Shown in pieces: positions 20,971 through 56,957 of a stretch of DNA of 64,000 nt. The position numbers and the translations under genes are program-made. Where the stretch lies: positions 260,709 through 324,708 of the forward strand of contig CAVPHS010000002.1 of the NCBI GenBank assembly GCA_963704805.1, in the 5' to 3' direction. The notes beneath the pieces are model-generated. The model was not told the origin of the DNA. It saw only the letters and a list, made by a program, of their open reading frames with translations, and searched no databases. This DNA is from an uncultured Gemmatimonadales bacterium (lineage in GTDB: Bacteria > Gemmatimonadota > Gemmatimonadetes > Gemmatimonadales > GWC2-71-9). Position 1 is the first letter of the stretch, and the number at the start of each line of letters is the position of its first letter.

Positions 20971-21522
20971 TCACAAAGTTGGTCGCTCGAGCGGAAACGT
21001 CCCGCGACGATGTCGCTCGGCTTCCGCGACGTAGTGCTCCCACGTCCCCGTGATGCGCGCGCGCAGACCCGCGTCGACGTGACGCACGACACGCGCGGGC
21101 ACTCCCATCACCAGCGACCCGGGCGGGACCCGCATCCCCTCGGGAACCACCGCGCCCGCGGCGATCACGCTTCCCGTTCCCACGTGCACGTCGTTGAGCA
21201 GGATGGACCCCATCCCGATCAGACACTCGTCTTCCACAATACAGGCGTGCAGGATGACCCGGTGCCCCACTCCCACGCGCGCGCCGATCAGGGCGGGCTT
21301 TCCTTCATCAACATGCACGATCGTCGCGTCCTGCAGGTTGGTCGCTTCGCCGACCACGATGGGCGCCATGTCGCCCCGCAGCACCGCCTGGTACCAGACG
21401 CTGGAGCGCGGGCCGAGGGTGACATCGCCGAGCACGACCGCGCCGGGCGCGATGAACGCCGTGGGGTGGATCTTGGGCGTGAGGATTACTGCCGCGCCGG
21501 CTGGAACGGCCACTGCACCCAC
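20971..21522 (-). CDS. Gamma-class carbonic anhydrase-like / hexapeptide-repeat protein
   Basis: 183-aa ORF with left-handed beta-helix repeats (IAPGAVVLGDVTLGPRSSVWYQAVLRGD...IGARVGVGHRVILHACIV). The start is uncertain: ATG 21522 overlaps the upstream kinase gene by 37 bp. Confidence 0.85.
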   Translation of the reverse strand: MGAVAVPAGAAVILTPKIHPTAFIAPGAVVLGDVTLGPRSSVWYQAVLRGDMAPIVVGEATNLQDATIVHVDEGKPALIGARVGVGHRVILHACIVEDECLIGMGSILLNDVHVGTGSVIAAGAVVPEGMRVPPGSLVMGVPARVVRHVDAGLRARITGTWEHYVAEAERHRRGTFPLERPTL

Positions 21523-23399
21523 GCTTCGGTCGGCTCACCGTTCTTCTGAGCCGGATTCCAGCGCAGGTGCCTTGCCATATCGAGGGCGTCGTTGTTGAAG
21601 GTTTCCACATTCGAGGGCACGAACACGCGCGCTTCCAGCGTGGTGCCCTCGCGCGAGACTTTCACGAGCAGGATGGCTTGTCGCGGAAAGATCGGAGCGT
21701 CCGGAGACACAGCGATGAGCGTGGGCGACAGCGGCACGGGACGACTGTCGAAACAGAGATTGTCCTGGTTGTACGCCGGTCCGAATTGATCGCAGGGGCC
21801 GGCGGCGTCCTCGCCGTTGCTCTCCATGACCACGCGCATCGTGAACGTTTGACCCGGGGTGATCGTCACCTGGTGGTCGTAGGTCAGGTAGCCCGCAGCC
21901 CGCACCGTCAGACGATGAACTCCGGACGGGAGGTCGACCTGGTTGCCGCTGACCGGCTGACCCTCGATAGCGACGCGCGCCCCGCGCGGCAGCCCCTGCA
22001 GCACCAATCGCCCTGGGGGACCAGAGGGGGGCGGCGGCGGTGGACCGACGATCGCGGTGCGACTGGTATCGACCCGGGGCGTGTCGACCGCCACGGCGGC
22101 GCCAGCAGAATCACGGTGGGCGGCAGTATCCCTCGGGGTCGCGAGCGTCGAATCGGGGCGCAGTGCGTCACTGCCTTTCGCGAAGATCAGGCCCTGCTTG
22201 TACGCGTAGAACCCACCGCCCCCGAACACCGCCCCTACGATGAGGAGCCAGAGCAAGAGACCCGCCAGGACAGAGCGACGGGGCTGTGCCGCGGCAACAG
22301 CGGGAGCGGCGCCGGGGGGGGTACTGCTGCCACCGGGGACCTGTGGACGCGTCCCCGTCGCGCGCGGCAGTGGCGTGGTGGGCGCCGACGCGAGGCGCGC
22401 GCCGGCCATCGCCGGCAGCGCCTGCGTCGCGTCGGTCGTGAACGTCACGGAGCGGCTACCCTCCAGCACGCCGATCAATTCGTCGGCGTTTTGGAAACGC
22501 TGCGCTGGTGTCTTCGCCATCATCTTCCGAATGATTTCGAACAGCGTCCGCTTCTCGGGACTGTCGAGCGGCGGCGTGGGGACCTCCTCCATGATGTGCT
22601 TGTAGCCGATTGAGAAGGAATCCTCACCGTCGAACGGCACGCTGCCCGTGAGACATTGATAGGCAACGACGCCGAGCGAATAGATGTCGCTGCGGCCGTC
22701 CAGCGGCTGCGCCTTGGCCTGCTCGGGACTCATGTAATGGGGCGTCCCGATCGACATCCCGGTGCCCGTGAGCTTGCCACCCGACACCGCCTTCGCGATC
22801 CCGAAGTCGGTCACCACCGCGTGCCCGTGCTCGTCGAACATGATGTTGTCGGGCTTGATGTCGCGATGGACGATTTCCTTCTTGTGCGCGTACGACAGTG
22901 CGCGGGAAACCTCGGCGAGGATGCGGCGGATTTCGAGCGGCGGCAGGGTACCGCGGGTCGCGAGGATACTCGACAGCGGTTTGCCGCGCAGGAACTTCAT
23001 GACGAAGTAGATGATGCGGCCCGATTTGCCGACGCGGTAAATCGGAATGATGTTGGGATGCTCAAGCTTCGCCGACGTGCGGGCTTCGCGCTGGAAGCGC
23101 TCGACGAACTCCCGGTCGAACGCGAGTGAGAAGGGCAGCACTTTGATGGCGACTTCGCGGTCGAGCTGTTTCTCCGTCGCCTTGAAGACGATCGCCATGC
23201 CGCCGCGGCCGAGCTCCTCGAGGATTTCGTATTCCTCGCTGAGCTCCTGGCGCACCATGTCGATTTCCGAGATGTCCGGCGCGTCGGCGCCCGGCCCTCC
23301 GCGGACGCCGGTCGGCGTCGTGACGGTCAGGTCGAGGCCGCAGGAATCGCAGAACTTCGCGGTATCCTTATTCTGGGTGCCGCAGCGGGAGCAATACAA
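21486..23399 (-). CDS. Ser/Thr protein kinase with N-terminal zinc ribbon, TM helix, PEGA domain and a TonB-C-like C-terminus
   Basis: 637-aa ORF. It has MYCSRCGTQNKDTAKFCDSCG and Hanks kinase motifs (AIKVL, HRDIKPDNIM, DFGIAK, SPEQA). The TM helix is LAGLLLWLLIVGAVFGGGGFYAY and the PEGA-like segment is LVLQGLPRGARVAIEG...VHRLTVRAAGY. The C-terminal ~80 aa are TonB-C-like. Confidence 0.9.
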   Translation of the reverse strand: MYCSRCGTQNKDTAKFCDSCGLDLTVTTPTGVRGGPGADAPDISEIDMVRQELSEEYEILEELGRGGMAIVFKATEKQLDREVAIKVLPFSLAFDREFVERFQREARTSAKLEHPNIIPIYRVGKSGRIIYFVMKFLRGKPLSSILATRGTLPPLEIRRILAEVSRALSYAHKKEIVHRDIKPDNIMFDEHGHAVVTDFGIAKAVSGGKLTGTGMSIGTPHYMSPEQAKAQPLDGRSDIYSLGVVAYQCLTGSVPFDGEDSFSIGYKHIMEEVPTPPLDSPEKRTLFEIIRKMMAKTPAQRFQNADELIGVLEGSRSVTFTTDATQALPAMAGARLASAPTTPLPRATGTRPQVPGGSSTPPGAAPAVAAAQPRRSVLAGLLLWLLIVGAVFGGGGFYAYKQGLIFAKGSDALRPDSTLATPRDTAAHRDSAGAAVAVDTPRVDTSRTAIVGPPPPPPSGPPGRLVLQGLPRGARVAIEGQPVSGNQVDLPSGVHRLTVRAAGYLTYDHQVTITPGQTFTMRVVMESNGEDAAGPCDQFGPAYNQDNLCFDSRPVPLSPTLIAVSPDAPIFPRQAILLVKVSREGTTLEARVFVPSNVETFNNDALDMARHLRWNPAQKNGEPTEAWVQWPFQPARQ

Positions 23400-23456: not shown

Positions 23457-25682
23457 CTAGCGATCGACGACTTGGAAACGCTCGGTTCGCGTAACGGTCG
23501 TTCTTGTCGCCGGATCGGCAATCGTGACCACCAGGCGATAGCTCCCTTTCGCGACGTCACGCAATTCGATGCCGCGCTGCACGCGGGTCACGGGCCCGTC
23601 GGAGGGCGCATCGAACTCGAGCAGCACCGGTGAGCGGCCGCCACCGAACAGCCGGCCGATGGCACTGAACAACGATCGCCCGCCTTCGCGCTCCAGGCGT
23701 ACGACCGTGTGATAGGCCGCGCCGCGCGCGAGTCCGTAGATCTCGTAATACAGATTCACGCCGCTGCCCTGCGGGAAGCGCTGCAGCGGGTTGAGTCGCA
23801 CGGTGTCGCCGGCCGCCGTGTGCCAGACGAGCCCCGAGCCGTCGCGTCCCACGACGACGTCGCTCACCGAGAAACGACGCGGATCGAGCGAGTCGACGCG
23901 CGCATCGTGCGTGACGAGATCACCGGCGCCGCCATCCAGCGTCGTGACGAGCAAACGATAGACGTACCGGCCCGTCGGCACCGGCAGCGCGATCCGGCCG
24001 GTCAGGTAATCGGGATGGCGCAGCGGCTGGCGCGCGGTGAACACGCGCAGCGTGTCGTGCTGCGCGACGACGTGGCCCGTGGAGTCGGCCACAATCAACC
24101 GAAACAGCAGCGGATAGCGCAGCCCGCCCGCGGCCTCCGCCGGCGCCGCCGAGAGACGCTCACCAGGAATCGCGAAGACCACATGGAGCAGTTGCCCGCC
24201 ACCTCCCAGGGTATCGCTCGTTTCCTCCCCCGTCTCGAACTCGCTCGCCACAATGTCCATCGGCAGGTCGAAATGGCGTGTGTAGCTGTCGCTCGTCGTT
24301 CCCGTGAGGATGTCGAGCCGGCCATGCGCACGCTCCGTGGCGAGCTCCGTGCCGACGGGCCGATGACTCGCGGCCACCCGCGTATAGATCGCGCCGAAGT
24401 TATGGCGCGAGGCGTAGAGGTCGGCGACCTGCGCATCCAGCACCGTGCCCGCGCGCATCCCTCGGCTGAATCCGAGGACATCGACCAGGCTCTCGACCAG
24501 CTTGTAGTCGCTCACATCGTCGCGCGCCACGAAGTGGAACACCAAGTCTCCCGCAGGACGACGGTACAACCAGCTCTCGTTTGGCTCGACATCGGTCTGG
24601 ACGAAGAGTGCGCGCCGGTCCGGCTCTCCATGCCGCAGGTAGATGATGCCGCGATCGTCGAACTCCGCTTGCGCGGAGCGGTAGCGCTCGGTGACGTCAT
24701 AGTGACGATGGCGGCTGACGAGACGAAAATCGTGGCGGGCCTGGAACCAGCGGCGGTAGTGCTCGGCGAGCCGCTCGCCCACATCGCGCGCGTCCACCGC
24801 GTCGCGCTTGCCCCAGAACTCGGCGAGCCATGCGGCGCGCGCGCCCGGGGTCGAGAGCGCGTCGAATGCCCTGAGCTCGGCGGAATCCGCGATCCACGAG
24901 AGGTCGAGACGGTAGAGCGCCACAGCCGCGGGTGAGCGTGCAACGCGCGCGCCGGTGAAGTACGCGGTCCAGCCGTCCTGAGGCCGGCGCGCAAGGTAGG
25001 AGGTGCGCGCGACTTCCAGAAAGCCGATTCCCGAATCCCCCGCGAGGTCGACATAGGCGCGGAACGCGGCCAGCGCCGAGTCGGTCTCCCCCGCCTCACG
25101 TTCGACGCGGCCGCGGACCAGCTGCACATCCGGGTGGTGTCCCGCCGGTGAGGCCGCCGCCATCCGGACGGCACTCAGCGCGACATCGAGCCGCGGGCGG
25201 ATGCGCTGTGTCAGGGCGGTGTTCGCGAGATCGACGACGGCGGATGCGAAAGAGGGATCGGCCTCAGTCGCCCGCGCAAACGCCTTCGCGGCTTTGGAGA
25301 GATAATCCTTGCCGAGCATCTGTTTCAGGTTTTCGACCGCGATCGCGCTGGCCTCGCCCACGGCCAGCTCGGACAGTCCCTGCCCATACCACGCATAGGG
25401 CCAGTCGGGTCGCAGCTCGCCCGCCCACTGAAATTCCCCGGCTGCGTCGTCGTAGTGCGATTTGTCTTTCGTGAGCTCGCCCAGCCGGTACGCGATGAAT
25501 CCGAGCCGCAGGTGAATGAGGGGATCGTCGCGATTCTGCTTGGCGACCGCGACCGTCGCGGTCTCGAGCCGCTTCAGCGAAACACTGTCCTCGACCTGGC
25601 TCAGCGAGTCGCGCAACGACTCCAGAGTGGCGCGATCAGCGGGAGCCTGAACCAGGGCGGCGAGGATGAGCAGCACAGCCAT
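23457..25682 (-). CDS. GWxTD-domain-like secreted protein with an N-terminal TPR-like region (tentative family)
   Basis: 741-aa ORF with a signal-like N-terminus MAVLLILAALVQAPA. EFWGKRD...EFDDRGIIYLRHGEP...ESWLY resembles the GWxTD domain layout. Confidence 0.6.
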   Translation of the reverse strand: MAVLLILAALVQAPADRATLESLRDSLSQVEDSVSLKRLETATVAVAKQNRDDPLIHLRLGFIAYRLGELTKDKSHYDDAAGEFQWAGELRPDWPYAWYGQGLSELAVGEASAIAVENLKQMLGKDYLSKAAKAFARATEADPSFASAVVDLANTALTQRIRPRLDVALSAVRMAAASPAGHHPDVQLVRGRVEREAGETDSALAAFRAYVDLAGDSGIGFLEVARTSYLARRPQDGWTAYFTGARVARSPAAVALYRLDLSWIADSAELRAFDALSTPGARAAWLAEFWGKRDAVDARDVGERLAEHYRRWFQARHDFRLVSRHRHYDVTERYRSAQAEFDDRGIIYLRHGEPDRRALFVQTDVEPNESWLYRRPAGDLVFHFVARDDVSDYKLVESLVDVLGFSRGMRAGTVLDAQVADLYASRHNFGAIYTRVAASHRPVGTELATERAHGRLDILTGTTSDSYTRHFDLPMDIVASEFETGEETSDTLGGGGQLLHVVFAIPGERLSAAPAEAAGGLRYPLLFRLIVADSTGHVVAQHDTLRVFTARQPLRHPDYLTGRIALPVPTGRYVYRLLVTTLDGGAGDLVTHDARVDSLDPRRFSVSDVVVGRDGSGLVWHTAAGDTVRLNPLQRFPQGSGVNLYYEIYGLARGAAYHTVVRLEREGGRSLFSAIGRLFGGGRSPVLLEFDAPSDGPVTRVQRGIELRDVAKGSYRLVVTIADPATRTTVTRTERFQVVDR

Positions 25683-25730: not shown

Positions 25731-28547
25731 TTAGAAGTCGGCGGCAAAGGCGCCGTACACCTGGGCCGATCCCGTGGCCGGCTGCGCGACGCCCACGCGC
25801 ACCCGGAGCGGCAGATCGTAGCTCACGGTCACATCGCCAACGAGCTCGGCGCCGAAGGAGCGGAGGCGGTGGAGCTGGGCCGGCGCACCAGGATTCCAGG
25901 CGTCGCCGAGATCACCAAACACGGCGAGGGAAAACTTGTCCCCGCCAAACGGCAGGTGACCGAGCGATTTGCCGACGAGAGCGAGGGGCACGCGATACTC
26001 GACCGTGGCCGTTGCCGCGCGACGCCCTGTGACCGCCCCCGGCGCATAGCCGCGCACCGGAAACGAGCGGAACGTGCCGATCGTCTGCGCAAACGCCAGC
26101 TGCGCGGCGCCCGAGGACACACCCCCGACGGAGAGGTGATCGGGTAACGGCCCGTCCATCGCACCGATCGCCAGGCGAGCCGCGACGACAGGATATGCGA
26201 ATCCGATCCGCGGGCCGAATCGCAGATAGAAATTGCCCCGGGCGCGCACCTCGTTTAGCCAGCGGGACGTTCCCTGCTCGCCGCGATAGCGGTACAGAAA
26301 GCTCGCCGACGCGCCGTCCTGCAGCGACATCGCGAGCGGCGCCGACACCGCCGATCCAAAGGAAAGACTCGCCGTGCCGCCAACCAGGTCGTTCGAGCGG
26401 CAACCGGTACAGATGTCGGCAAGCGCGGTGTCGGGCTCGGAGACGTATCTCCTTCCTTCATATTCGGCGGCGACACGCAACGAAACGAAGCTGCGCCAGC
26501 GGTGGGCCAGGAAGGTGGCGCCGATGCCGGCATCGCGCTGCTCCCGGGACACCACGTGGCCGGTGCTGTCGATGCCGATCAGCGTCCAGTGATTCGAGAT
26601 GGAGAAGTCGAGCGTCGGATCGCCCAGCGCATTGCTCAACGCGAACAGCGACCCCTCCGCGCGCAGCGGCGCACCCCCCCCCGATACGAGCGCGGTGGCG
26701 AAATAGGCGTAGCGACCTACCGCGTCACCGCCCGCGGTGCCGGCGCCGACGAAGCGGCCTGCGGCGGCGGCATCGAGCCACAGCGGAATCCAGAAATACG
26801 GACGCAACGACGGCCAGGACGCGTACCCTGTTTCCCGCACCGCGACACGGGGCGCGGAATCGAAGGGCGTCGTGGCCGCCATCGCGTCAGGGGGTCGCGG
26901 TGACGCGAGCGGCGCGACCGCGCGCAGCTCCCAGCCCTGAGGCCCAAGCGTCGTGAAAAGAATCCGTCCGTCGGCGAGTACGGCGGGTGAGCGTGCGCCG
27001 AGCGGCTCCGCGGTGATCCGGCTGATGCCACCTTCTTCGTTCCAAAGGTGGATCTGCGGAAAGCCGCCGGCATCCGTGACGAACAACACGCCACCCAGCC
27101 CCCAAACGGGGTCGGCCACGATGTCGGCTGGCGGGCTGATGGCCGACAGCGATTGTGGCAGCCCTGCGCGCCAGCGCACCAGCTGCCACTGTCCATTCTG
27201 GTGACGAGGAGCGACGACCCAGCGGCCGTCCGGCGACGGTACGACGTCGCCCCACGTCGCACCCGGCAGATCGATGACGGGCGCCGAGAGCAGCGGAGCC
27301 ACCGCGGGGGCAATGCCGCCGTCGCCGAGCTTGAGCGCAACGAGCGCGCCGCCGCCACTGCGCGGCTCGAGCAGGCGCGCGGAGTCGGTCATGCGTGTCC
27401 AGTCTCCGCCCGGCGACCAGCGCCACAGATCACTGCGCACTGTCCAGCGATCGGTGAACTCGAGCTGCGCAACGATCAGGGTGTCGCCCAACCAGTCGTA
27501 ACTGACCTGGCCGTTGACGCGGTGGGAGCGCTGCACTGTCCCGCTCCGCGCGTCGACGACGCGCAGATGGCGTGCGTCACGGCCGTCATCGTAGACATAG
27601 GCGACGCTGCCGCCGTCCGGCGACACGCGCGGCACGGGCTCGGTGCGGAGCTGGCCGGCAATGAGCCGGCTCTGTGTGGCCGACTCGTTCGGGGCGGATG
27701 GGGTGGCGGGGAGCGCTGCCGCTGCGATCGCGCCCTGCCATGTCTCAAACAACGACCGCGGCGCGCCGACACCTTTGAGCGGCCGGCCAACGCGGAACGG
27801 GATCAGCTGGCCGGCCGTCCGCTCCGCGTACCGTGGGACGAGCGAATCGCCCGCAGTTTGCGAGACGTATTCCCAAAACCGGCTGCCGTACGCATAGGGG
27901 GTGATTCCGTCGGCCCAGCGCGTGAAGAGGAGCGCATCGTACGGCGAGCGGGCTTCGCTGGCGAGCGCGTCCGCGCCGACCGCCTGCCGGTGAAAGCTCC
28001 CCTCCGCACGCCCGCCCATTGTGAAGCGAGACTCGTAATAGGTGGCAATTCCTTCGGTCACCCAGCTTGGCTGGTACTGATTGGGAAACAGGCCGGGGAG
28101 CCGGCCGAATACGGTTTGCAGCGCGCTCCAAATTCCGCGCGTTCGATCGAGATGAAAGACGTGCGTCAGCTCGTGCACGATGACGAGTCGCTGCCAGCTG
28201 TCGTAGCTCTGGAGCGCGGGATCGGTGCTGGGCGGGACGAGCAGGATGGTGAAGCGGTTGGAGGGATAGGTCGACGTAAATCCGTTGGCCGCGTCGAAGT
28301 CGTCGGACACCGTCAGGTCCACGATGCCGCGTGGTGGATGGAGCTCGGTCGACAGTAATCGGTACGCGCGTTCGGCTTCCCTCGCGGCTTCGAGCGCTTG
28401 CGCGTGATTGGCGGGGCGGAAGTGGACGCGGAAATGCTCGGTATGTAACGTGCGCCAACTGCCTGACGGATTCACTTGAGCGGCGGCGGGGGTGGCAAGC
28501 AGAAGGGCAAGCAACAACGTGCGTGGTGCGTGGTGCGTGGGCATCAC
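25731..28547 (-). CDS. Outer-membrane fusion protein: HExxH metallopeptidase-like region + PD40/TolB-like propeller repeats + Omp85-type C-terminal beta-barrel
   Basis: 938-aa ORF. The signal peptide is MMPTHHAPRTLLLALLLATPAAAQ. VIVHELTHVFH is present. SPDG-type repeats include VSPDGGSVAYVY and PSPDGRWVV. The C-terminus VRGYAPGAV...EYRVPL...FGDLGDAW...GAFAADF ends in an aromatic residue, as in beta-barrel OMPs. Confidence 0.7.
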   Translation of the reverse strand: MMPTHHAPRTLLLALLLATPAAAQVNPSGSWRTLHTEHFRVHFRPANHAQALEAAREAERAYRLLSTELHPPRGIVDLTVSDDFDAANGFTSTYPSNRFTILLVPPSTDPALQSYDSWQRLVIVHELTHVFHLDRTRGIWSALQTVFGRLPGLFPNQYQPSWVTEGIATYYESRFTMGGRAEGSFHRQAVGADALASEARSPYDALLFTRWADGITPYAYGSRFWEYVSQTAGDSLVPRYAERTAGQLIPFRVGRPLKGVGAPRSLFETWQGAIAAAALPATPSAPNESATQSRLIAGQLRTEPVPRVSPDGGSVAYVYDDGRDARHLRVVDARSGTVQRSHRVNGQVSYDWLGDTLIVAQLEFTDRWTVRSDLWRWSPGGDWTRMTDSARLLEPRSGGGALVALKLGDGGIAPAVAPLLSAPVIDLPGATWGDVVPSPDGRWVVAPRHQNGQWQLVRWRAGLPQSLSAISPPADIVADPVWGLGGVLFVTDAGGFPQIHLWNEEGGISRITAEPLGARSPAVLADGRILFTTLGPQGWELRAVAPLASPRPPDAMAATTPFDSAPRVAVRETGYASWPSLRPYFWIPLWLDAAAAGRFVGAGTAGGDAVGRYAYFATALVSGGGAPLRAEGSLFALSNALGDPTLDFSISNHWTLIGIDSTGHVVSREQRDAGIGATFLAHRWRSFVSLRVAAEYEGRRYVSEPDTALADICTGCRSNDLVGGTASLSFGSAVSAPLAMSLQDGASASFLYRYRGEQGTSRWLNEVRARGNFYLRFGPRIGFAYPVVAARLAIGAMDGPLPDHLSVGGVSSGAAQLAFAQTIGTFRSFPVRGYAPGAVTGRRAATATVEYRVPLALVGKSLGHLPFGGDKFSLAVFGDLGDAWNPGAPAQLHRLRSFGAELVGDVTVSYDLPLRVRVGVAQPATGSAQVYGAFAADF

Positions 28548-30409
28548 CGCGCCATCTCTCGCAGAAAATCTTCGATCCCTTTCGCGACGCCACGCGCATA
28601 CCGCAGCCGGCCTTCAGGACTCGCGAGCAGCGCTTCCTGCTCCGGGACCATCATGAACAAGCCTTCGGTCAGCGCCGAAGGCATCCACGGGTCCCGCACC
28701 AGCGCGTAGTCCCCGCGCCCCATGCCGAGGTCGCGCGCGCCGAGCTCGGTCACGAGCGCGCGGTCGAGCGCGCGCGCCAGCGCGGCGCTGCGTGGGTGGA
28801 AGTAGTAGACACTGGTGCCGTTGTTGACGAATGGGTTCACGCCATCCGGGAGCGCGTTGGCGTGAATCGAGACCAGTACGTCGGCATCGTGTCGCTCGGC
28901 GAACTGTGTCCTCGGAAAGAGGTCGATCGGTGTGGAGTCGGTGCGCGTGAGCAGCACGGTGGCGCCGCGCTGCTCGAGCAGCGTTTTCGCCTGCTGCGCG
29001 ACAGCCAGCGTCGCGACGGGCTCCCACAATCCCGACGGTCCTTTGGCACCGAGGGGCGGGTGGCCGGGGTCGAGGACAATGGTACGGCCGGCCAGCGGCC
29101 GGCGGGAATCGATCACCGGCGGCCGGCGAATTTCGAGCACGAGATCGCGAGCGCTCCAGCGCGCGCGGTAGCCCCAGACATGCCCGGACAGCGTGAGCGT
29201 GATCGTCACCTCGTCGCTCGTCGGCTGGGCATAGCTCATCCGCGTCACGTAGGGATCGGTGCCGCCGTGTTGCATCCAGTTGATGTCCGACGCGACGCCG
29301 TACAATCGCAGCGTCAGGCTGCGCTCTTCTTCTTCGACCTTGAACGGCACGCGCGCCGGCAGGGACACGTGAAGTACGAGCGAGCGCGTGCCCGCGACGA
29401 GCCGCACGGAGCCCACGTTGCCGCCAGGCGGCGGCGTCCCTGCCGCGAGCGGCACGACGTCGCTCGAGTTCACCCACGCCACCGCGCCACGCGACAGCTG
29501 CAGCCGCGTTTGGCTGCTCCAACGGCCGCTGGCGACCGCCGTGGTGCCAAGGGGGAAGAACCAGTTGTAGGTGCCGTACGGAACGGCCTTACCGACGGTC
29601 AAGCTGTCGGACTTCCCGGTGTGCGCGGTGTCATCGTTCAGGACCACGACCGCCGGATGACTGCGATCGATGGTGTCGACCACGAGAGGCCAGACGGCGC
29701 GCGCGGTGTCCGTTCCTACGATCGCTTCCACGATCGCGTCGCACAGCGGTTGCGCCGGAAGCCAGGCGACGTAGCGGTCGGCGGCCGGTGGAAGCCGATA
29801 GGCCGTGGTATCCGTGCCGAACGCGCGGACCCCCCACGCCGGCTCTTCGGGCAACGTATCCGGCACGAGCCACACGGCATCCTTCTGCCCCTCCATGCGC
29901 AGGCGGACGCGCGCGCCGGGTGTGGCGCGAACCGACAGCCGAATCCCCTCTCCCGCCGGGAAGGCCAATGAATCGGTCGGCGTGAAGCTCGTCGTGTCGA
30001 TCCAGGCGGCGGCGCCTGGCAGTGGACGAAACAGCTGCGCGACCGGTGCGACGAACGTCGTCTCGCGTTGCTCTGCTCCCGTGCCGGCGCGTGCGACGAT
30101 GCGAAACCGCGCCATGCTCAATAAGTCCGGCTGCAGCGGCACCCACGCCAGCCAGCTGCCACTCGCGTGCACCGTCACCGGACGGTCATTGACCGTGAGC
30201 GCGACATCGCCGCGCCCCCGTCCTACGCTGCCGAAAATGAAGGATGAGTCCTGGGCCTGAATCGCCTCGGCCGTGTCGGGATAGACGACGGTGATGTGAA
30301 GGGAGTCACGAACGGATGATGGAGATGGGGGACTGGAGACGGGGGACGGGGCTCGCGCTGCGCAGCCCAATGTTGCCGCGACAAAAAGCGCGGCACAAAC
30401 GAGTCGCAT
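28544..30409 (-). CDS. N-acetylmuramoyl-L-alanine amidase (Amidase_3) lipoprotein with a large N-terminal domain
   Basis: The ORF track extends to 30856. ATG at 30409 gives the lipoprotein signal MRLVCAALFVAATLGCA. The C-terminal domain reads IVLDPGHPPLGAKGP...LVSIHANA...GTSVYYF...ALTEGLFM. Confidence 0.85.
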   Translation of the reverse strand: MRLVCAALFVAATLGCAARAPSPVSSPPSPSSVRDSLHITVVYPDTAEAIQAQDSSFIFGSVGRGRGDVALTVNDRPVTVHASGSWLAWVPLQPDLLSMARFRIVARAGTGAEQRETTFVAPVAQLFRPLPGAAAWIDTTSFTPTDSLAFPAGEGIRLSVRATPGARVRLRMEGQKDAVWLVPDTLPEEPAWGVRAFGTDTTAYRLPPAADRYVAWLPAQPLCDAIVEAIVGTDTARAVWPLVVDTIDRSHPAVVVLNDDTAHTGKSDSLTVGKAVPYGTYNWFFPLGTTAVASGRWSSQTRLQLSRGAVAWVNSSDVVPLAAGTPPPGGNVGSVRLVAGTRSLVLHVSLPARVPFKVEEEERSLTLRLYGVASDINWMQHGGTDPYVTRMSYAQPTSDEVTITLTLSGHVWGYRARWSARDLVLEIRRPPVIDSRRPLAGRTIVLDPGHPPLGAKGPSGLWEPVATLAVAQQAKTLLEQRGATVLLTRTDSTPIDLFPRTQFAERHDADVLVSIHANALPDGVNPFVNNGTSVYYFHPRSAALARALDRALVTELGARDLGMGRGDYALVRDPWMPSALTEGLFMMVPEQEALLASPEGRLRYARGVAKGIEDFLREMAR

Positions 30410-30454
30410 GTGGCGCAAGCTAGCGGTCGACAATAGATTGGGCCACCTGACTTT

Positions 30455-31417
30455 ATGAGCTCCTCTCTGAACGCGTGTCAATATTGCGGCCGGAAAAACG
30501 AGGCCAGCGCGCAATTCTGCTCCGACTGCGGCAAGCCGCTCACCAAGGCCGCCGCGATGCGGGCCGCTGTCGCGGCGGGAGGTGGTGGCGGGGGCGGCAT
30601 GGTGCGCACCAGCGACCCGCCGGGCGCCGCGGGGACGGCGGACGCGGCGTGCCCCGTCTGCGGTCATGTCCCCCTTTCCGCTCCCCCCGGCGCGGTCCAG
30701 GCTGGTCGTGACAGCCACGACAGACGGTCGAGTTCCGATAGACGCGCCAATTACTCCCTCACATTGATTCTGGTTTCCGAAATGGCCGCCGAACTGGGGC
30801 GGTTCGAGCGCAAGCAGGCGACCACGACCATTGGCAGAACCGACGGCGATCTTCAATTTCCCGACGATTCATTTCTCTCGCCGCTGCACGCCAAGATCTC
30901 GTGGGAAGAGGGGCGCCTCGAAGTCCGCGATCTGGGAAGCCGCAACGGCACCTGGGTTTTTCTGGACGCGCCGTATCGACTGACCGACGGCGACCTCATT
31001 CTCATCGGATCGCAGGTGCTGCGGTTTCGGCGGCTGGGCTACCCCGGCCCCCACGCGACCGAAGCCGACTCCACCAAGCGCATGGGCAGCATGGTGCCCA
31101 GCGCCGACATCGCCAGTCTCACGCAGCTCCGCGCCGACGGCAGCTCGCGTGACGTCATTCAGCTCTCGCCGGGGCGCGATGTCCATATCGGCCGCGAGCG
31201 CGGTGACTGGATTTTTCCCTACGATCCGTCGATGAGCGCGCAGCATGCGACCGTGCGGTCCGAAGACGCGGACTTCGTGCTGGTGGATGACCACAGCCGC
31301 AATGGCGTCGCGATCGCGGCGCGCGGCGCGATGCCGCTGCAGCATGGCTCGCGCATCATGGTCGGCGACAAACTGCTCCGCCTCGAGCTTCCCGGAGGTG
31401 GAGGCGGGGCACCCTGA
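30455..31417 (+). CDS. Zinc-ribbon protein with two FHA domains
   Basis: 320-aa ORF. The zinc ribbon is CQYCGRKNEASAQFCSDCG. FHA1 reads TTIGRTDGDLQFPDDSFLSPLHAKI...RDLGSRNGTWV. FHA2 reads VHIGRERGDWIFPYDPSMSAQHATV...DDHSRNGV. Confidence 0.85.
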   Translation: MSSSLNACQYCGRKNEASAQFCSDCGKPLTKAAAMRAAVAAGGGGGGGMVRTSDPPGAAGTADAACPVCGHVPLSAPPGAVQAGRDSHDRRSSSDRRANYSLTLILVSEMAAELGRFERKQATTTIGRTDGDLQFPDDSFLSPLHAKISWEEGRLEVRDLGSRNGTWVFLDAPYRLTDGDLILIGSQVLRFRRLGYPGPHATEADSTKRMGSMVPSADIASLTQLRADGSSRDVIQLSPGRDVHIGRERGDWIFPYDPSMSAQHATVRSEDADFVLVDDHSRNGVAIAARGAMPLQHGSRIMVGDKLLRLELPGGGGGAP

Positions 31418-32457
31418 TGGCCATGTTCGGACGCTCGCCCAAGATCCGCGTCGAGGTCTTCGCGAAGACCGATCTGGGCCGTACGCGCGACCATAACGAG
31501 GACCGCTACCTCGTCGCCGATCTCACGCGTAAGTCCTCCTCGCTGCAGCCCGACGTGCGCCAGCACGACGTCGGCCCGCGCGGCACGCTGCTCGTCGTCG
31601 CCGACGGTATGGGAGGCGCGGCGGCCGGGGAGCTGGCGAGCCAGATGGCGACCGATACGATCTACGCGCATCTCGAAAAAACATGGAACGCGGAAGACGA
31701 GGCGACGCCGCAGCGCTTTGCCTACCGGCTCAAGGAAGCGGTCGAGGTCGCCAACGCGAGCATTCACGCGCACGCCAAAGCACACCCCGAAGTCCGCGGC
31801 ATGGGCACGACGACGACCGCTGCCGGGGTGCTGAACGATCACCTCTATCTGACGCAGGTCGGCGACAGTCGCGCGTACCTGATTCGCGGCGGCGAGGCAC
31901 ACCAGATCACCAAGGATCAGTCGCTCATGCAGCGGCTCGTCGAAGCAGGCGAGCTGACGGAAGAGGAGGCCGCGCACAGCGAACGTCGCAACATCATCCT
32001 CCAGGCGCTCGGCCCCGATGCCAAGGTGAAGGTGGATCTCACGCACCAGGAGCTACGCCGCGGCGATATCCTCGTGCTCTGCTCCGACGGGCTGTCGGGA
32101 CAAGTAAAGAAGGAGGAGATCGCGAAGATCGTCGCCTCCGCGCCTGACCTCGCGGCCGCCTGCGACCAGCTCGTGGCGCTCGCCAATGCGCGCGGCGGTC
32201 CCGACAACATCACGGTCGTCGTGGCGCGGTTCGACGGGGACGGCCTGCGCTACTCCGGCAGCGGGCCGAGCGAGGATGTGGGCCATCAGATTTACCCGCT
32301 GATCGATACCGAGACGAGCACCGAGCCCGTCCCTATATATAAAGGAAGCCGCCCGCCCGTCCCGAACAAGGAGAACCGCAGCCGCACGCGCACGCTCGTG
32401 CTCGTCGCCGTCGCGGTCCTCGCCGCTCTCGCCTGGTACCTCACGCGACAGCAGTGA
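31417..32457 (+). CDS. PP2C-family Ser/Thr phosphatase with a C-terminal TM anchor
   Basis: 346-aa ORF with TDLGRTRDHNEDR, VADGMGG, GTTTTAA and DNITVVV motifs. The C-terminal helix is TLVLVAVAVLAALAWYL. Its ATG overlaps the upstream stop (ATGA-type junction). Confidence 0.9.
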   Translation: MAMFGRSPKIRVEVFAKTDLGRTRDHNEDRYLVADLTRKSSSLQPDVRQHDVGPRGTLLVVADGMGGAAAGELASQMATDTIYAHLEKTWNAEDEATPQRFAYRLKEAVEVANASIHAHAKAHPEVRGMGTTTTAAGVLNDHLYLTQVGDSRAYLIRGGEAHQITKDQSLMQRLVEAGELTEEEAAHSERRNIILQALGPDAKVKVDLTHQELRRGDILVLCSDGLSGQVKKEEIAKIVASAPDLAAACDQLVALANARGGPDNITVVVARFDGDGLRYSGSGPSEDVGHQIYPLIDTETSTEPVPIYKGSRPPVPNKENRSRTRTLVLVAVAVLAALAWYLTRQQ

Positions 32458-33782
32458 AAGCCCAGTTCACGTTTCTCTCTGGGGCCCGCGCGGGACAGAT
32501 CGAAGCCTTCCGCAAGGGTTACATCGGCCTCGGTCGCCATCCCCTGTCGGACGTGCGCTTCGACGCCGAGCGCGATCTCGATGTCTCATCACGTCACGCG
32601 GCGATCGTTCGCAGAGCCGATGGCTTCGTGCTCCAGGATCTCGGCAGTCGCAACGGGACCTTCGTGAATGGCCGGCAGATCAGCGCCGAAACCGAGCTGC
32701 ACAGCGGTGACGTGATTGGGTTCGGCGCCGGCGGCCCGGCCCTCGAGTTCCAGATCATCGATGTCGAGGGCGATGCTCCAGTGACGGGCGTGGCGCAGCC
32801 ACGCGAGCTCGTCCGCGCGGCGCCGCGGCATAGCACCGGAATGCGCATCGCCGCCGAGGTCGCGCGGCAAACCGCACAGCTGCGCCGCACGACCAAGATT
32901 CTGATCGTGGTCCTGCTTATCGCCGCCACTGGCTTCACGTGGGTGCAGTGGGATGGCCGGCGTCGCGCGCGCGAGGCCGACACCCTCTATCGCACCGAGC
33001 TGCAGGGTGTGCGTGACGCGCTGCGAGGCTCACTGGAGGAGACCGGGCGCCTGCGGCGCGAGCTCGAGGCTGCGACGGGCAATGCCGCATCGGTATCGCA
33101 GCTGCGCGCCCAGTTGGACTCCGCCGAGCGCCGCCAGCGCGCGATCGCGACGGTCGATTTCCGCGCGATCTCGCACAAGAATCAGGACGCCGTCGCCATC
33201 GTCCTGGTGGAGTTCAGCAACGGTGAGCGATTCAGCGGCACGGCGTTCAGCGTGGACTCGCTGGGGACGATGGTCACCAACAAGCACGTCCTCATCGGGG
33301 ACGACGGCACCAAGAGTCCCAGACGGATCGGCGTCATCTTCTCGGGCAGCACCCAGTTCTGGCGCGGGCAGATGCTTGGCGTTGCACCGGATGCCGACAT
33401 CGGCGTGTTCCGGGTCTTGATCAAGGGCGTCACACCCCAGGTCGTGGCTCTCGCGCGCGATCGCGGGGGGCTCGAGCGGGGCGATCCCGTCGCGATCCTC
33501 GGCTATCCACTCGGGTTCGACCTGCCGATGGACGCCCAGGGCGGCCAACCAATCGCCGACCCGACGCTGACGGTGGGGGCCGTGAGCAAGGCGTTGTCAT
33601 CGGTCGTGCAAGTGGACGCCTACGGTGCGCCAGGATCGTCGGGCAGCCCCATCTTCGATCGTGAGGGACGGGTGATTGCTGTACTTTATGGTGGTGAGCG
33701 AGAATCAAACGGGAAGATCATTTTCGGGGTGCCTGCGTATCTTGCTGCGGATTACTTGAAGAGCCTCAACCTCCCCCACTAG
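32454..33782 (+). CDS. FHA domain - TM helix - trypsin-like (S1) serine protease fusion
   Basis: 442-aa ORF. The FHA domain reads IGLGRHPLSDVRFDAERDLDVSSRHAAI...QDLGSRNGTFVNG. The TM helix is ILIVVLLIAATGFTWV. The protease part has GTAFSV...VTNKHV (His) and GAPGSSGSPIF (Ser). Confidence 0.85.
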   Translation: MKAQFTFLSGARAGQIEAFRKGYIGLGRHPLSDVRFDAERDLDVSSRHAAIVRRADGFVLQDLGSRNGTFVNGRQISAETELHSGDVIGFGAGGPALEFQIIDVEGDAPVTGVAQPRELVRAAPRHSTGMRIAAEVARQTAQLRRTTKILIVVLLIAATGFTWVQWDGRRRAREADTLYRTELQGVRDALRGSLEETGRLRRELEAATGNAASVSQLRAQLDSAERRQRAIATVDFRAISHKNQDAVAIVLVEFSNGERFSGTAFSVDSLGTMVTNKHVLIGDDGTKSPRRIGVIFSGSTQFWRGQMLGVAPDADIGVFRVLIKGVTPQVVALARDRGGLERGDPVAILGYPLGFDLPMDAQGGQPIADPTLTVGAVSKALSSVVQVDAYGAPGSSGSPIFDREGRVIAVLYGGERESNGKIIFGVPAYLAADYLKSLNLPH

Positions 33783-42340: not shown

Positions 42341-43855
42341 TCACGGCGTCGCCGAGTTGCTCACGAACGCCAGTCGCCGGCCGTCCGGCGACCACGACGG
42401 AACGTTGATCGTTCCCTGACCACCGTACAGATAGGCGATGACTCGCGCCGGTCCACCACCGACGGGCATCAATCGCAGCAGCACGTGCTTGTAGAACGGA
42501 TGATCGTCCGGCGCGACGTCCGGACCAAAGGCGAGATACACGATCCATTTGCCGTCTGGCGAAATGTGCGGGAACCAGTTGTTGAAGCCGTCGTTCGTGA
42601 TCTGCTCCTGGGCGGTCCCATCGGGTCGCATCCGCCAGATCTGCATCCGTCCACTGCGCGACGAGTTGAAGTAGATGTAGGTGCCGTCGGGCGTGTACTC
42701 CGGTCCGTCATCGAGGCCCGGCGCGGTGGTGAGGCGGATCTCGTCGCCTCCGCTCGCGGAGATCTTGTAAATGTCCAGCGAGTCGTTGCGCTCGCCCACA
42801 TAGACCAGCCACCGGCCATCGGGTGACCAACCGTGCAGGTACGATGGTCCTTTGGCGGTGATGCGGGTTGGGGTGCCGCCGGTCGCCGCGAGCGTGTAGA
42901 CAATCGACGCCCCGCTGTCCTCCACCGCATGGTGACTGATGCCCAGCCTCCGGCCGTCAAACGACAGCACGTGGTCATTGTTGTTGCGCGTCGCAAACCC
43001 TGTGTTGATCGCTGCGGCCGAGCGCGTCGAGAGATCGAAGCGGAAGAGGCGTCCCTCTTGCGCGTAAATGAGGGCCTTGCCGTCGCGAGTCCAGTTGGGC
43101 GCCTGAAACGATCCGCCGTACTGGTGCACAATCGTCGCGTGCCCCGTCGTAACGTCGAGAACTTCGAGGTTCGAGCCGAGGTAATCGCGGTAGGCGACGA
43201 AGTCTCGCTGCGCGGGCGTCGTGATGCGGACGTTGCTGAACGTGGCCCGCTCCGTGACCGTGTCGTTGTGCGCGCACACGAACACGCCGACGTAGACGGT
43301 ATCGGGGAGTGCGACGTCGGCGAGTCGCTGTGTGACGAGCGTGTCACCGAATTGCGCCACCGACATGAAGTACGCACCATCGCGCCGCTCGAGCTGGATG
43401 ACCGCGTCGGCGTTGGGAAGGCTGTCGGCCGACTTCGCCTCCTCCGTCATGGCGCCGGTCTGCCGCCGGAACTGGAGCGACATCAAGCCGTTGCCGTGCA
43501 ACGCCGCGGTGACGTGCGCGCTGCCGGGATCAAGTGATGGACGAATGGTCCAGCCGATCTTGCGATGCTCCTCCACGCCCGCGCCGATGAAGCGCGCCCG
43601 CGTGGAGAGGATGAAGTTGCCGGTGAGCCGTTTCCAGACGAAATGAAAATCGTCGCGGGAGTCCCACATGTTCTGACCCGACCCCGTAATCTGGTACGTC
43701 TGCGACTGGGGGTCGTACGACGCGGAACCTCTTGCCCGCCCGACGTCCGTGTGCGTCGCAAAGACGCCGACCGGACTCTGAGCGCTGAGGACTTCGCCGC
43801 AGACGGCGGCAGTTAGCACGAGCGCGCGCAGGCTGCGGCGCGGTGAAAAATTCAT
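42341..43855 (-). CDS. Secreted protein: N-terminal lectin/ConA-like region + TolB-like PD40 beta-propeller
   Basis: 504-aa ORF with a signal peptide. PD40 repeats include WSPDGRWLVYV, YTPDGTYIYF, ISPDGKWIVY and WSPDGRRLAF. Confidence 0.75.
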   Translation of the reverse strand: MNFSPRRSLRALVLTAAVCGEVLSAQSPVGVFATHTDVGRARGSASYDPQSQTYQITGSGQNMWDSRDDFHFVWKRLTGNFILSTRARFIGAGVEEHRKIGWTIRPSLDPGSAHVTAALHGNGLMSLQFRRQTGAMTEEAKSADSLPNADAVIQLERRDGAYFMSVAQFGDTLVTQRLADVALPDTVYVGVFVCAHNDTVTERATFSNVRITTPAQRDFVAYRDYLGSNLEVLDVTTGHATIVHQYGGSFQAPNWTRDGKALIYAQEGRLFRFDLSTRSAAAINTGFATRNNNDHVLSFDGRRLGISHHAVEDSGASIVYTLAATGGTPTRITAKGPSYLHGWSPDGRWLVYVGERNDSLDIYKISASGGDEIRLTTAPGLDDGPEYTPDGTYIYFNSSRSGRMQIWRMRPDGTAQEQITNDGFNNWFPHISPDGKWIVYLAFGPDVAPDDHPFYKHVLLRLMPVGGGPARVIAYLYGGQGTINVPSWSPDGRRLAFVSNSATP

Positions 43856-54616: not shown

Positions 54617-55424
54617 AGGGGTAGTCGGGCTCCTCGTACCCATCCGGCTTCCCCCGCTTGGGCAACTTCACAGCTTCGCGCGGCACTTTCTTGTAGGGAA
54701 TCTGGCTGAGCAGATGGGTGATCAAATTGAGGCGCGCCCGCCGCTTGTCGTCGGACTTCACCACGTACCACGGCGCCCATGCGGTGTCGGTCGCCTTGAA
54801 CATGTCGTCCCGCGCTCGCGAGTAGTCGTACCACTTGCCGTACGATTCGAGATCCATGGGCGAGAGCTTCCAGATCTTGCGCCCGTCGTCGATCCGTGAT
54901 TCGAGGCGGCGGGTTTGCTCTTCCATGCTCACCTCGAGCCAGTACTTGAGCAGGATGATGCCGGACTCCACGATGATCTTTTCCATGGCCGGCGCCAATT
55001 GAAGGAAGCGCTCAACCTCCTCCTCGGTGCAGAACCCCATGACGCGCTCGACGCCGGCGCGGTTATACCAGGAGCGGTCCCAGATCACGATCTCGCCGGC
55101 TGCCGGCATGTGGGGCAGGTAGCGCTGGATATACATCTGGCTCTTCTCCCGCTCGGTGGGCGAGGGGAGTGCGATGACCCGGAACACTCGCGGGCTGACG
55201 CGCTCGGTGATCGCCTTGATCGTGCCGCCCTTGCCGGCGCCGTCACGCCCTTCGAACACGATACAGATCTTTTTGCCCTTGGCTTTCACCCATTCCTGGA
55301 CCTTCACGAGCTCGACGTGGAGCTTGGCCAGCTCCCTGTCGTATTCCTTCCCCGTCAGCTTGTTCTTGTCCTCGTGGTTCGAGTCCTTTGCGCGCTTCTT
55401 GTCACCCATGGGTTCTGTCCTCAT
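54591..55424 (-). CDS. ppk2: Polyphosphate kinase 2
   Basis: 277-aa ORF with FEGRDGAGKGGTI (Walker A), IWDRSWYNR and the PPK2 lid region. Confidence 0.9.
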   Translation of the reverse strand: MRTEPMGDKKRAKDSNHEDKNKLTGKEYDRELAKLHVELVKVQEWVKAKGKKICIVFEGRDGAGKGGTIKAITERVSPRVFRVIALPSPTEREKSQMYIQRYLPHMPAAGEIVIWDRSWYNRAGVERVMGFCTEEEVERFLQLAPAMEKIIVESGIILLKYWLEVSMEEQTRRLESRIDDGRKIWKLSPMDLESYGKWYDYSRARDDMFKATDTAWAPWYVVKSDDKRRARLNLITHLLSQIPYKKVPREAVKLPKRGKPDGYEEPDYPFKFVPEEF

Positions 55425-56956
55425 TGCGCTTTCACCGCCGCCTTGGTTGAGTCCCGGCGCTCCGTCTCCTCGACCACCAGCCGGTATGCGATGTAGTACT
55501 TGAAAATGTTGGCGACGTAGGTCACGGTCTCGCGCCCGATGCGCTCAGACGCGATCTGTTCCACGTTTCCAAACCAGACGTTGGGGTTGAGTCCGCGCTT
55601 CTCGGCTTCGCTCCGCAACTGGCGCACCCGACCCACCCCCGCGTTGTACGCCGCGAAGGTGAACAGCGCCTTGTTCAGGTCATCCATCGGCTCGTTCTCG
55701 AAGTACGCATCCCGCACTGAGCGCATGTGCTTGACGCCGGCGTGGATGTTCGGCTCGAGTTGTGTGATGTCGCCGACCTTCAGGAGCTTGCCGGTCTCCG
55801 GCATGATTTGCATGATGCCGATGGCACCGACCGGACTCCTGGCGTACTGATGGAGCCGGGACTCCTGGTACCCCTGCGCGGCCATCAGCAGGAAATCCAC
55901 GTTGTACCGGTTGCTGTACTTCCGAAAGAGCGCCACGACCGCCAGGAACGCCTTGCGCCCTGCCACCGACGTGGCGCTCTTCGCATACTTCGCGTTGACG
56001 AGGTAGTCTCGGTTGACCCGATCGCCAAAGGCCGTGCCCAACCCGTACTTCCCCATGAACGTGTTCAGCGCCGCGAGCAGGTGCGGGTTGTTCTTGCGGA
56101 CCGCGATCGCGAGCGTGCCGCCTGAGTGCAGCGTGATGCTGTCGTGGACGATGAGTTTCCGAAAGATCTTCTTCCAGAAGACGGCGAGATAGTCGTCGAC
56201 CACGACGGCCGGGATCAGGCCGGCGTTCACCATCTCGAGCAGGTCATCATCCTCCAGGTTCGGCGGGGCCTCCCGAATCACCACCGGCGGCCTGCCCTGG
56301 GATTTGAATAGCTCGTTGAGCGCGCGCAGGCTCTGGGCGTAGCCGCCAAATTCGCGCGCGAACACTTCTTTGCCCGACAGGTCCGCGATGGTGCTGATCG
56401 CCGGCGCGCCCCCCCTCGCCCCCCCCGCCCCCCCCGGGCCGGTGACCAGGATCTGGTGCACGTTCGTCCGGGTGGGATCGCTGAAGGCGACGTGCTGCTG
56501 CAGCTCGGGCGTCACCGGGATTTGGGCCGCGACCAGGTCCACCTTGCCGTCGATGAGCGCCGACAGCAGCATTTCGCGCGGCAGCGGCAGGAAGATGACG
56601 TGGATCTTGTTGCTGTTCCCGGTGCGGAAGTGTCGGTTGAGCCGTTCCTCCATGAGCTGGCCGTACTCGTACGCGATGCCGCGTGGCACGCCCTTGTCGA
56701 CGTAATAGAACGTGCGATTGAACGCCACCCCGATCCGCACGACTCGTCGCTGGACAACCTCGTCGAGGTCGCCGGTAAACGGCCTCAGCACCACCTCGCG
56801 CACCGAAGCCGGCAGCTGGGTTTCGAGGTCGGAGGGCGGGAGTGGAGCCTCGGCCTCCTCGACTGGCGGCGCCTGCTGCGCTGGCGGCTTGTCGCCACCG
56901 CACGCCGTGAGTGCCACCACGGCGCCAACGAGCAGAACAGCAACGAGTTTGGTCAC
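55421..56956 (-). CDS. mltF: MltF-like lytic transglycosylase (solute-binding-protein-like domain + SLT domain)
   Basis: ORF 55421..56998. GTG at 56956, 1 nt after the asd stop, gives the lipoprotein signal VTKLVAVLLVGAVVALTACGG. SLT motifs are AAQGYQESRL, GIMQIMP and AAYNAG. Confidence 0.8.
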   Translation of the reverse strand: MTKLVAVLLVGAVVALTACGGDKPPAQQAPPVEEAEAPLPPSDLETQLPASVREVVLRPFTGDLDEVVQRRVVRIGVAFNRTFYYVDKGVPRGIAYEYGQLMEERLNRHFRTGNSNKIHVIFLPLPREMLLSALIDGKVDLVAAQIPVTPELQQHVAFSDPTRTNVHQILVTGPGGAGGARGGAPAISTIADLSGKEVFAREFGGYAQSLRALNELFKSQGRPPVVIREAPPNLEDDDLLEMVNAGLIPAVVVDDYLAVFWKKIFRKLIVHDSITLHSGGTLAIAVRKNNPHLLAALNTFMGKYGLGTAFGDRVNRDYLVNAKYAKSATSVAGRKAFLAVVALFRKYSNRYNVDFLLMAAQGYQESRLHQYARSPVGAIGIMQIMPETGKLLKVGDITQLEPNIHAGVKHMRSVRDAYFENEPMDDLNKALFTFAAYNAGVGRVRQLRSEAEKRGLNPNVWFGNVEQIASERIGRETVTYVANIFKYYIAYRLVVEETERRDSTKAAVKAQ

Positions 56957-56957
56957 C

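Follow-up and report, generated by a model that had tools for sequence, protein, structure and literature searches.

A window of 64,000 nucleotides from an uncultured Gemmatimonadales bacterium (NCBI GenBank assembly GCA_963704805.1, contig CAVPHS010000002.1, positions 260,709 to 324,708) carries, at 25731..28547, a gene for an exported protein in which a zinc peptidase and a TolB-like propeller very probably precede an Omp85-type β-barrel that lacks POTRA domains. The architecture is catalogued but uncharacterised, and hence is not new as a discovery. The protein is proposed to be an outer-membrane-anchored periplasmic protease for maintenance or remodelling of the cell envelope, a reading to which a probability of roughly 0.55 is given. 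In Gemmatimonadota it most likely works in remodelling of the cell wall and the outer membrane, because its gene is translationally coupled to one for a lipoprotein peptidoglycan amidase.

The domain assignments rest on family profiles and on a structure model, because the scores of the single sequence in Pfam remain below threshold: Omp85 (PF01103) was found at E 0.017, with 15.1 bits against a cut-off of 24, and PD40 at E 0.083. None of the single-sequence matches in Pfam, NCBIfam or the PDB sequences was significant (TolB, E 0.0022; BamA, E 0.035), and a profile of close homologues recovered from the PDB TolB alone, at E 0.042. In Pfam, full-length relatives at 28-31% identity do score above threshold for PD40 as well as for Omp85 (35.5 and 48.5 bits for Omp85). 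The AlphaFold2 model of the full protein was built on 67 homologues and has a mean predicted local distance difference test score (pLDDT) of 75.5, and a family profile of 130 diverse full-length relatives was searched against PDB sequences. By sequence alone, this profile matched TolB chains at E ~1e-30 and BamA (8xnb) at E 1.8e-6. The model, the Foldseek comparisons and the family profile together support the three parts named in the original prediction, which was an HExxH region, a TolB-like propeller and an Omp85-type barrel. That prediction had allowed that the C-terminus might not be a β-barrel and that the HExxH motif might lie outside a peptidase fold; the former is modelled as a 16-stranded Omp85-type barrel and the latter, according to Foldseek, sits in a gluzincin fold.

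In the model, the 16 strands of the barrel lie between residues 582 and 935, and Foldseek matches them with a probability of 1.00 to BamA of D. radiodurans (TMt 0.56), to the barrels of E. coli BamA (~0.49), and to TamA, Sam50, Toc75, FhaC and CdiB. In BamA structures, the (V/I)RG(F/Y) motif of loop L6 pairs with the (F/G)xDxG motif of strand β13. On the strand map of the protein, L4 is a long loop that includes a short helix and joins β7 to β8, and L6, the longest loop, lies between β11 and β12, so that the modelled positions of L4, of VRGY in L6 and of FGDLGD in β13 reproduce the layout of BamA. Residues R832, G833, F877, D879 and F938 are each shared by at least 90% of 130 relatives, and the pattern [VIL]RG[YF] occurs in 109 of 120. 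An Omp85-like region of about 300 residues ending in Phe had been described here beforehand; the motifs (FPVRGYAPG, EYRVPL and FGDLGDAW) and the final Phe are indeed present, and the size has to be revised to about 357 residues. The NCBIfam model for BamA gives 12 bits against a cut-off of 1050. A check for POTRA-like folds with the model and Foldseek detected no such domain anywhere in the protein: 36 disordered residues lie between the propeller and β1, and the N-terminal domain resembles peptidases only. The C-terminal half of this linker (…RETGYASWPSL) is kept among close relatives. As a separate observation, the predicted extracellular L4 contains at residues 704-720 (window ~26388..26438, minus strand) a CxxC pair (ADICTGCRSND) in which C713 and C716 are invariant among 67 close homologues; it could represent a surface disulfide or a metal site.

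The model of the propeller has a pLDDT of about 85-95 (about 90 at residues 294-544), and its 24 strands are grouped as six four-stranded blades. Foldseek matches this region to TolB and to the tricorn protease, and the PD40 repeats of SPDG type that had been noticed earlier are found as RVSPDGGS, VPSPDGRW and LADGRILF. The protein is not, however, a TolB equivalog: against TIGR02800 it scores 17 bits with a cut-off of 343.15, the alignment is confined to the propeller, and the N-terminal α/β domain of TolB is absent. Of the genes scanned in its neighbourhood, none was recognised as tol or pal. Three relatives (P0390, P0452 and P0497) bear the public labels 'Protein TolB' or 'TolB family protein'. 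Such names are over-annotations which cover the propeller but not the peptidase or the Omp85 barrel, because the α/β domain is missing, the propeller is fused to a barrel, and the TIGR02800 score lies far under its cut-off. The window also encodes a second PD40/TolB-like propeller protein, of 504 residues, at 42341..43855 (minus strand), with PD40 at E 2.6e-27 and 115 bits for TIGR02800 against the cut-off of 343; the open reading frames (ORFs) adjoining it have no NCBIfam match, and it could be either the real TolB-like protein of this lineage or another propeller protein.

In the full-length model, the N-terminal domain is of α/β type and spans residues 30-280, and its HExxH motif lies within a long helix. 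When it was modelled alone (pLDDT 66.5), its Foldseek neighbours were solely gluzincins, namely M9 collagenases (7z5u, E 5e-4, TM 0.50; also 4ar1 and 4ar9) and M1 aminopeptidases (IRAP, ERAP1, LTA4H, PepN and F3). As predicted from its motifs and its model, the domain has what characterizes gluzincins of clan MA(E), i.e. HExxH, a downstream Glu and a thermolysin-like fold. The motif VIVHELTHVFH of the original prediction is located at residues 122-132. In M1 peptidases the third zinc ligand is supplied by a WLNEGFA motif, and judged from the likeness of its EGxA to that of M1 and other gluzincins, E165 may serve as the third ligand here. Residues H125, E126, H129, E165 and E172 are invariant in the 130 full-length relatives, at identities down to 23%, and HExxH followed by EGxA was found in 117 of 120 relatives; the catalytic residues thus appear, from the alignment, to be under strict purifying selection. 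Mean identity to the protein is 0.38 for the peptidase, 0.27 for the propeller and 0.29 for the barrel. Because its catalytic residues are invariant and the domain is the best conserved of the three, the peptidase is almost certainly active. No named family can be assigned to it, because the profile and Pfam searches gave nothing significant: a profile of the N-terminal domain had no match among PDB sequences, and with Pfam the N-terminal domains of 27 relatives gave sub-threshold matches, nearly all to zincins (Peptidase_MA_2 in 8, DUF1570 in 6, BSP in 5 and M1 in 3), the best of those to Peptidase_M1 being at E 0.008. Membership in M1 or M9 was considered and rejected, since there is no significant sequence match, the sequence ahead of HExxH shows no GxMEN exopeptidase motif, and the spacing from HExxH to the Glu is 35 residues instead of the 18 of M1.

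The family is large. A protein search returned more than 600 homologues, all labelled 'hypothetical' or 'PD40 domain-containing', and those named by organism were all from Gemmatimonadota. When genomes were scanned with one representative per species, 394 matching stretches proved to encode a relative; the best 80, nearly all from metagenome-assembled genomes (MAGs) of Gemmatimonadota, were kept as loci. An exhaustive profile search of 1.84 billion cluster representatives yielded 1,574 clusters (50% identity) at E ≤ 1e-30; among the 150 listed, 120 have at least 900 residues (up to ~1,100), and most align over nearly the whole profile. Full-length homologues beyond Gemmatimonadota occur in Gammaproteobacteria and in Candidatus Schekmanbacteria at 25-28% identity (E ~1e-60), and the gammaproteobacterial proteins with the same architecture are homologous over their full length (E 1e-63). 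They include WP_116687182 of Pelagibaculum spongiae, which UniRef names 'Bacterial surface antigen (D15) domain-containing protein', and L8JBU7 of Photobacterium marinum, named 'WD40 repeat protein'; further homologues come from Isoalcanivorax pacificus, Marinospirillum, Thiomicrospira and Thalassolituus.

The gene itself is genuine. The 938-residue protein that had been read at 25731-28547 is indeed one uninterrupted ORF with known homologues; it lies on the minus strand, and the interval is broken by many stops when translated on the plus strand. ATG is its second codon (28544), and from this start, which public annotation uses, the product has 937 residues; the public protein P0001 (937 aa) is 100% identical to the ORF product. 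A signal peptide had also been noted, and the sequence does read as a typical Sec signal, MPTHHAPRTLLLALLLATPAAA, followed by QV; the Sec-type signal of the ORF product ends in …LLLALLLATPAAA, before QV. In a scan for promoters and terminators, the number of sites was no higher than in shuffled controls. Table 1 lists the coordinates of the domains and of the flanking genes.

Table 1. Positions in the window of the parts of the protein and of neighbouring genes.
Feature	Residues	Position	Strand	Remarks
Whole ORF		25731..28547	minus	938 codons from GTG start; stop TAA at 25731-25733
Sec signal peptide	1-23	28479..28547	minus	VMPTHHAPRTLLLALLLATPAAA, then QV; read from sequence; low-confidence N-terminal helix in model
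Gluzincin-fold zinc metallopeptidase domain	24-285	27693..28478	minus	Foldseek of domain model; no significant Pfam family
HELTH	125-129	28161..28175	minus	Predicted: two zinc ligands and catalytic Glu
EGIA	165-168	28044..28055	minus	Inside WVTEGIATYYE; E165 putative third zinc ligand
Six-bladed TolB/PD40-type β-propeller	290-545	26913..27680	minus	AlphaFold2, Foldseek, family profile
Linker, 36 residues	546-581	26805..26912	minus	Predicted disordered; too short for POTRA
16-stranded Omp85-type β-barrel	582-938	25734..26804	minus	Terminal Phe, long L4 with short helix, long L6
VRGY	831-834	26046..26057	minus	Loop L6; Omp85 hallmark motif
FGDLGD	877-882	25902..25919	minus	End of β13; (F/G)xDxG motif
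Amidase gene, 629-aa probable lipoprotein (…AATLGC), C-terminal Amidase_3 domain of N-acetylmuramoyl-L-alanine amidase type		28544..30433	minus	Pfam Amidase_3 E 5e-31; upstream
TPR and GWxTD-domain protein, 741 aa, hydrophobic N-terminus		23457..25682	minus	Downstream, 48-bp gap
Ser/Thr kinase, N-terminal zinc ribbon, C-terminal PEGA and TonB_C		21486..23399	minus	Flanks operon
Zinc-ribbon/FHA protein, PP2C phosphatase, FHA-trypsin-like protease		30455..33782	plus	Divergent cluster

The neighbourhood offers the main clue to function. The original prediction had the stop of the gene overlapping the start of the amidase gene by 4 bp, and had concluded that the two are probably co-expressed. The order is in fact the reverse, the amidase gene being upstream with its TGA stop overlapping the start of the gene within cgcGGTGATGccc (GGTGATG), by 4 bp with the GTG start or by 1 bp with ATG; the inference of co-expression stands. 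This coupling is widespread, in that an Amidase_3 gene ends at the start of the gene in 56 of the 69 Gemmatimonadota loci with enough upstream sequence, at identities of the protein down to 39%. Residues ~25-450 of the amidase form an N-terminal region of ~430 residues with no match in Pfam or NCBIfam, and across the phylum this lipoprotein is more conserved than its partner (~80% against ~66% identity). Downstream, the protein with TPR repeats also has a GWxTD domain (TIGR04514, E 2.4e-9), which has no known function; its gene directly follows in 24 of 61 loci (~40%) and may be regarded as an optional member of the cluster; in 37 of the 61 loci, a Ser/Thr kinase with PEGA and TonB_C domains comes directly after the gene. 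The amidase, the fusion protein and the TPR/GWxTD protein are consecutive products that all have export signals. A more distant Gemmatimonadota genome (GCA_963731365.1, 3370..11066) has in one cluster genes for a MurQ-like protein (SIS/GKRP), AnmK, PP2C, Amidase_3, the fusion protein and RNR, in which the MurQ-like and AnmK genes are genes of peptidoglycan (anhydro-MurNAc) recycling.

The signalling genes that flank the operon on both sides are syntenic across the phylum, and the set resembles the actinobacterial cell-envelope cluster of FHA, PstP and Pkn (fhaA-pstP-pknB). No RodA or PBP genes were found near the FHA, PP2C and kinase genes, whose neighbours are glycoside hydrolases and a PQQ dehydrogenase. 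Another cell-wall enzyme, a MltF-like lytic transglycosylase (SBP_bac_3 and SLT), is encoded at 55421..56998 (minus strand), ~27 kb from the gene.

In BamA topology, strand β1 would enter the membrane from the periplasm, and the linker, propeller and peptidase would hang at the periplasmic face of the outer membrane; the soluble domains are placed in the periplasm because, by homology, β1 should start at the periplasmic face as it does in BamA-type barrels. The barrel would then be chiefly an anchor, and possibly a docking site too. The propeller of TolB binds partners, and those of tricorn, DPP-IV and acyl-peptide hydrolases act as a gate to the peptidase. The propeller may likewise be a platform that selects substrates or binds partners, and the peptidase would cleave unfolded polypeptides or peptides of the envelope. 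In Gemmatimonadota its substrates might be the stem peptides freed by the partner amidase, or the amidase itself, which would be processed or controlled in this way. A specific link of the protein to peptidoglycan is suggested only tentatively.

Several observations weigh against an envelope protease working in the periplasm next to the amidase. The model of the N-terminal domain is of moderate confidence (pLDDT 66.5, TM ~0.5), with no significant sequence match to any peptidase family, and both the substrate and the membrane topology are deduced, no experimental work having been found for any member. The amidase gene does not adjoin in 13 of the 69 Gemmatimonadota loci, nor does it at three distant loci, those of Pelagibaculum spongiae, a Schekmanbacteria MAG and a contig of unplaced taxon. 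Since it is absent beside these distant relatives, the connection with peptidoglycan is an association at the level of the lineage, and the ancestral role of the family need not involve peptidoglycan. Finally, the protein has ~66% identity across the phylum where the amidase has ~80% and RNR ~93%, a divergence that would also fit exposure at the cell surface.

These same observations bear on the other explanations. The occurrence of family members in other phyla with no amidase neighbour would suit a role in the quality control or assembly of outer-membrane proteins, in which BamA, BamB and a BepA-like protease would be united in one chain, the lateral seam of the barrel engaging stalled β-barrels while the propeller scaffolds and the peptidase degrades. 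For such a task it would matter that the hallmarks of BamA (VRGY in L6, FxDxG in β13 and the seam of 16 strands) have been kept and have not decayed to those of a plain anchor; complexes of BAM with the metalloprotease BepA are an established precedent, and BamD and BepA contain TPR repeats, as does the protein encoded downstream. Yet the protein is without POTRA domains, which in BamA and TamA receive the substrate, its propeller is a six-bladed one of the TolB/PD40 type and not an eight-bladed one of the BamB/PQQ type, its peptidase is not M48-like, and in this lineage synteny favours peptidoglycan over the biogenesis of outer-membrane proteins, all of which makes this explanation unlikely.

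The faster divergence of the gene compared with its flanking genes would fit a reading in which the barrel moves its own peptidase and propeller to the surface, in the manner of the type V protein PlpD, to act as a surface-bound or released protease, e.g. in the scavenging of peptides. Gemmatimonadota and marine Oceanospirillales are organotrophs, hosts that could use peptidases at their surface. PlpD itself is a precedent, and the same alternative has been raised for fusions of enzymes with Omp85 barrels (PMC4104836). In PlpD, however, a POTRA domain separates passenger and barrel, while here there is a linker of 36 residues alone; an Omp85 barrel normally has a closed lumen when L6 locks it (PMC4104836), there is no sign of an autocleavage site or of a passenger-like β-helix in the model or in the alignment, and the coupling to a lipoprotein amidase of periplasmic type and to genes of peptidoglycan recycling favours the periplasm. 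Self-export is for these reasons judged improbable, and very improbable indeed is a third explanation, in which the protein is a tether that connects the outer membrane in TolB-like fashion to peptidoglycan-associated partners and the HExxH domain merely binds, as the degenerate LytM factors NlpD and EnvC do when they activate amidases. Amidase_3 enzymes of model organisms depend on non-catalytic activators that resemble metallopeptidases, an Amidase_3 enzyme does adjoin, the propeller is homologous to that of TolB, and some databases label relatives 'TolB'. But the invariance of the two His, the Glu and the downstream Glu in ~130 sequences, at identities down to 23%, is not expected of a degenerate domain, the fold is that of a gluzincin and not of LytM/M23, and the window encodes another PD40/TolB-like protein at 42341..43855.

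An envelope protease fixed in the outer membrane is the preferred reading, and it may be extended, with considerable doubt, to a more specific proposal. The protein would be the outer-membrane half of an undescribed module for remodelling of the cell wall, a propeller-gated zinc peptidase which the POTRA-less barrel positions beneath the outer membrane, in a stoichiometric complex with the co-translated amidase, degrading the stem peptides which that enzyme releases or switching the enzyme on or off by proteolysis; in a variant of the proposal, the protein would be an Omp85 system that exports itself independently of POTRA domains. If true, the module would couple position in the outer membrane to septal or lateral cleavage of peptidoglycan, and would be a functional analogue of the control of AmiC by NlpD and Tol-Pal, or of the NlpI-Prc and LbcA-CtpA systems. 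Omp85 proteins have a central part in the biogenesis of the outer membrane, and mechanistic knowledge of them comes almost entirely from members that bear POTRA domains. In this large subfamily, which extends over hundreds of Gemmatimonadota species and marine Gammaproteobacteria, the POTRA arm is replaced by a peptidase and a TolB-type propeller, and to learn its substrate and the side of the membrane on which it acts would reveal further uses of the Omp85 barrel.

The architecture had been said in the original prediction to match no described protein, which does not hold, since it was catalogued in 2014. Heinz & Lithgow (PMC4104836) distinguished ten bacterial subfamilies within the Omp85/TpsB superfamily, among them a 'WD40-like' one (WD40-Omp85), with members that have PF07676 either with or without PF01103 (their Table S2). 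For each member, their Table S3 (Phyre2) gives a BamA/TamA barrel, TolB (2w8b, 2ivz) and a 'best aminopeptidase hit' (1z5h, 3qnf, 4kxd, or the collagenase 4ar1/4ar9). Their text treats the propeller alone, as a 'BamA-BamB fusion', the peptidase being confined to the supplementary table. The member list comprises C1A6X2 as well as proteins of Vibrio, Rhodothermus, Salinibacter, Anaeromyxobacter and others, and does not include the family member L8JBU7 of Photobacterium marinum; for C1A6X2 the templates were BamA 4k3b (100), TolB 2w8b (100) and collagenase 4ar9 (99). A paper of 2024 (PMC11358297) again ascribes 'divergent WD40 and peptidase domains' to some of the Omp85 subfamilies. The family has thus been annotated and catalogued, but the literature searched contained no functional, structural or genetic study of any WD40-like Omp85 member, and it cannot be called a characterised one. 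C1A6X2 is presumed to be from Gemmatimonas aurantiaca, on the basis of UniProt accession ranges; an orthologue search with a Gemmatimonadaceae homologue gave no named match. What is added here is the strict conservation of the catalytic and barrel motifs throughout the family and, in Gemmatimonadota, a conserved and translationally coupled amidase partner, which provides a concrete hypothesis.

By its architecture and by the structural templates it shares, the protein is assigned to this WD40-like Omp85 subfamily, with indirect support from its full-length homology to gammaproteobacterial proteins of like architecture and from the listing of C1A6X2. The order of the domains is the same, from a peptidase-like region through a TolB-like PD40 propeller to an Omp85 barrel, with no POTRA, and the templates of Table S3 (BamA 4k3b, TamA 4c00, TolB 2w8b, and 4ar1/4ar9 or M1) were recovered independently in the present analysis; gene context was not part of the 2014 study (PMC4104836), in which the coupling to an amidase in Gemmatimonadota is not described. 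With BamA and TamA, the protein has in common the 16 strands, VRG(Y/F) in L6, FxDxG in β13, the helix in L4 and an aromatic residue at the C-terminus, but it differs from them in that it carries enzymatic and propeller domains in addition to lacking POTRA, and in that its Pfam and NCBIfam scores are far below the cut-offs. The six-bladed PD40 propeller is homologous to that of TolB at the level of profiles; TolB, on the other hand, is a soluble periplasmic protein of the Tol-Pal operon with an N-terminal α/β domain, whereas the propeller described here is without that domain and is covalently joined to an outer-membrane barrel. PlpD (type Vd) likewise has an enzyme domain N-terminal to an Omp85-type barrel, although its passenger is a patatin lipase, which is exported, and is accompanied by POTRA; the present protein has neither patatin nor POTRA, and has a propeller besides. 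Tricorn, the top Foldseek match of the whole model, and the S9 enzymes DPP-IV and acyl-peptide hydrolase, which the family profile matched, also join a PD40-type propeller to a peptidase, but in another domain order and with a serine peptidase in place of a metallopeptidase. With the M1 and M9 gluzincins, finally, the N-terminal domain shares the catalytic fold and the logic of HExxH followed by a downstream Glu.

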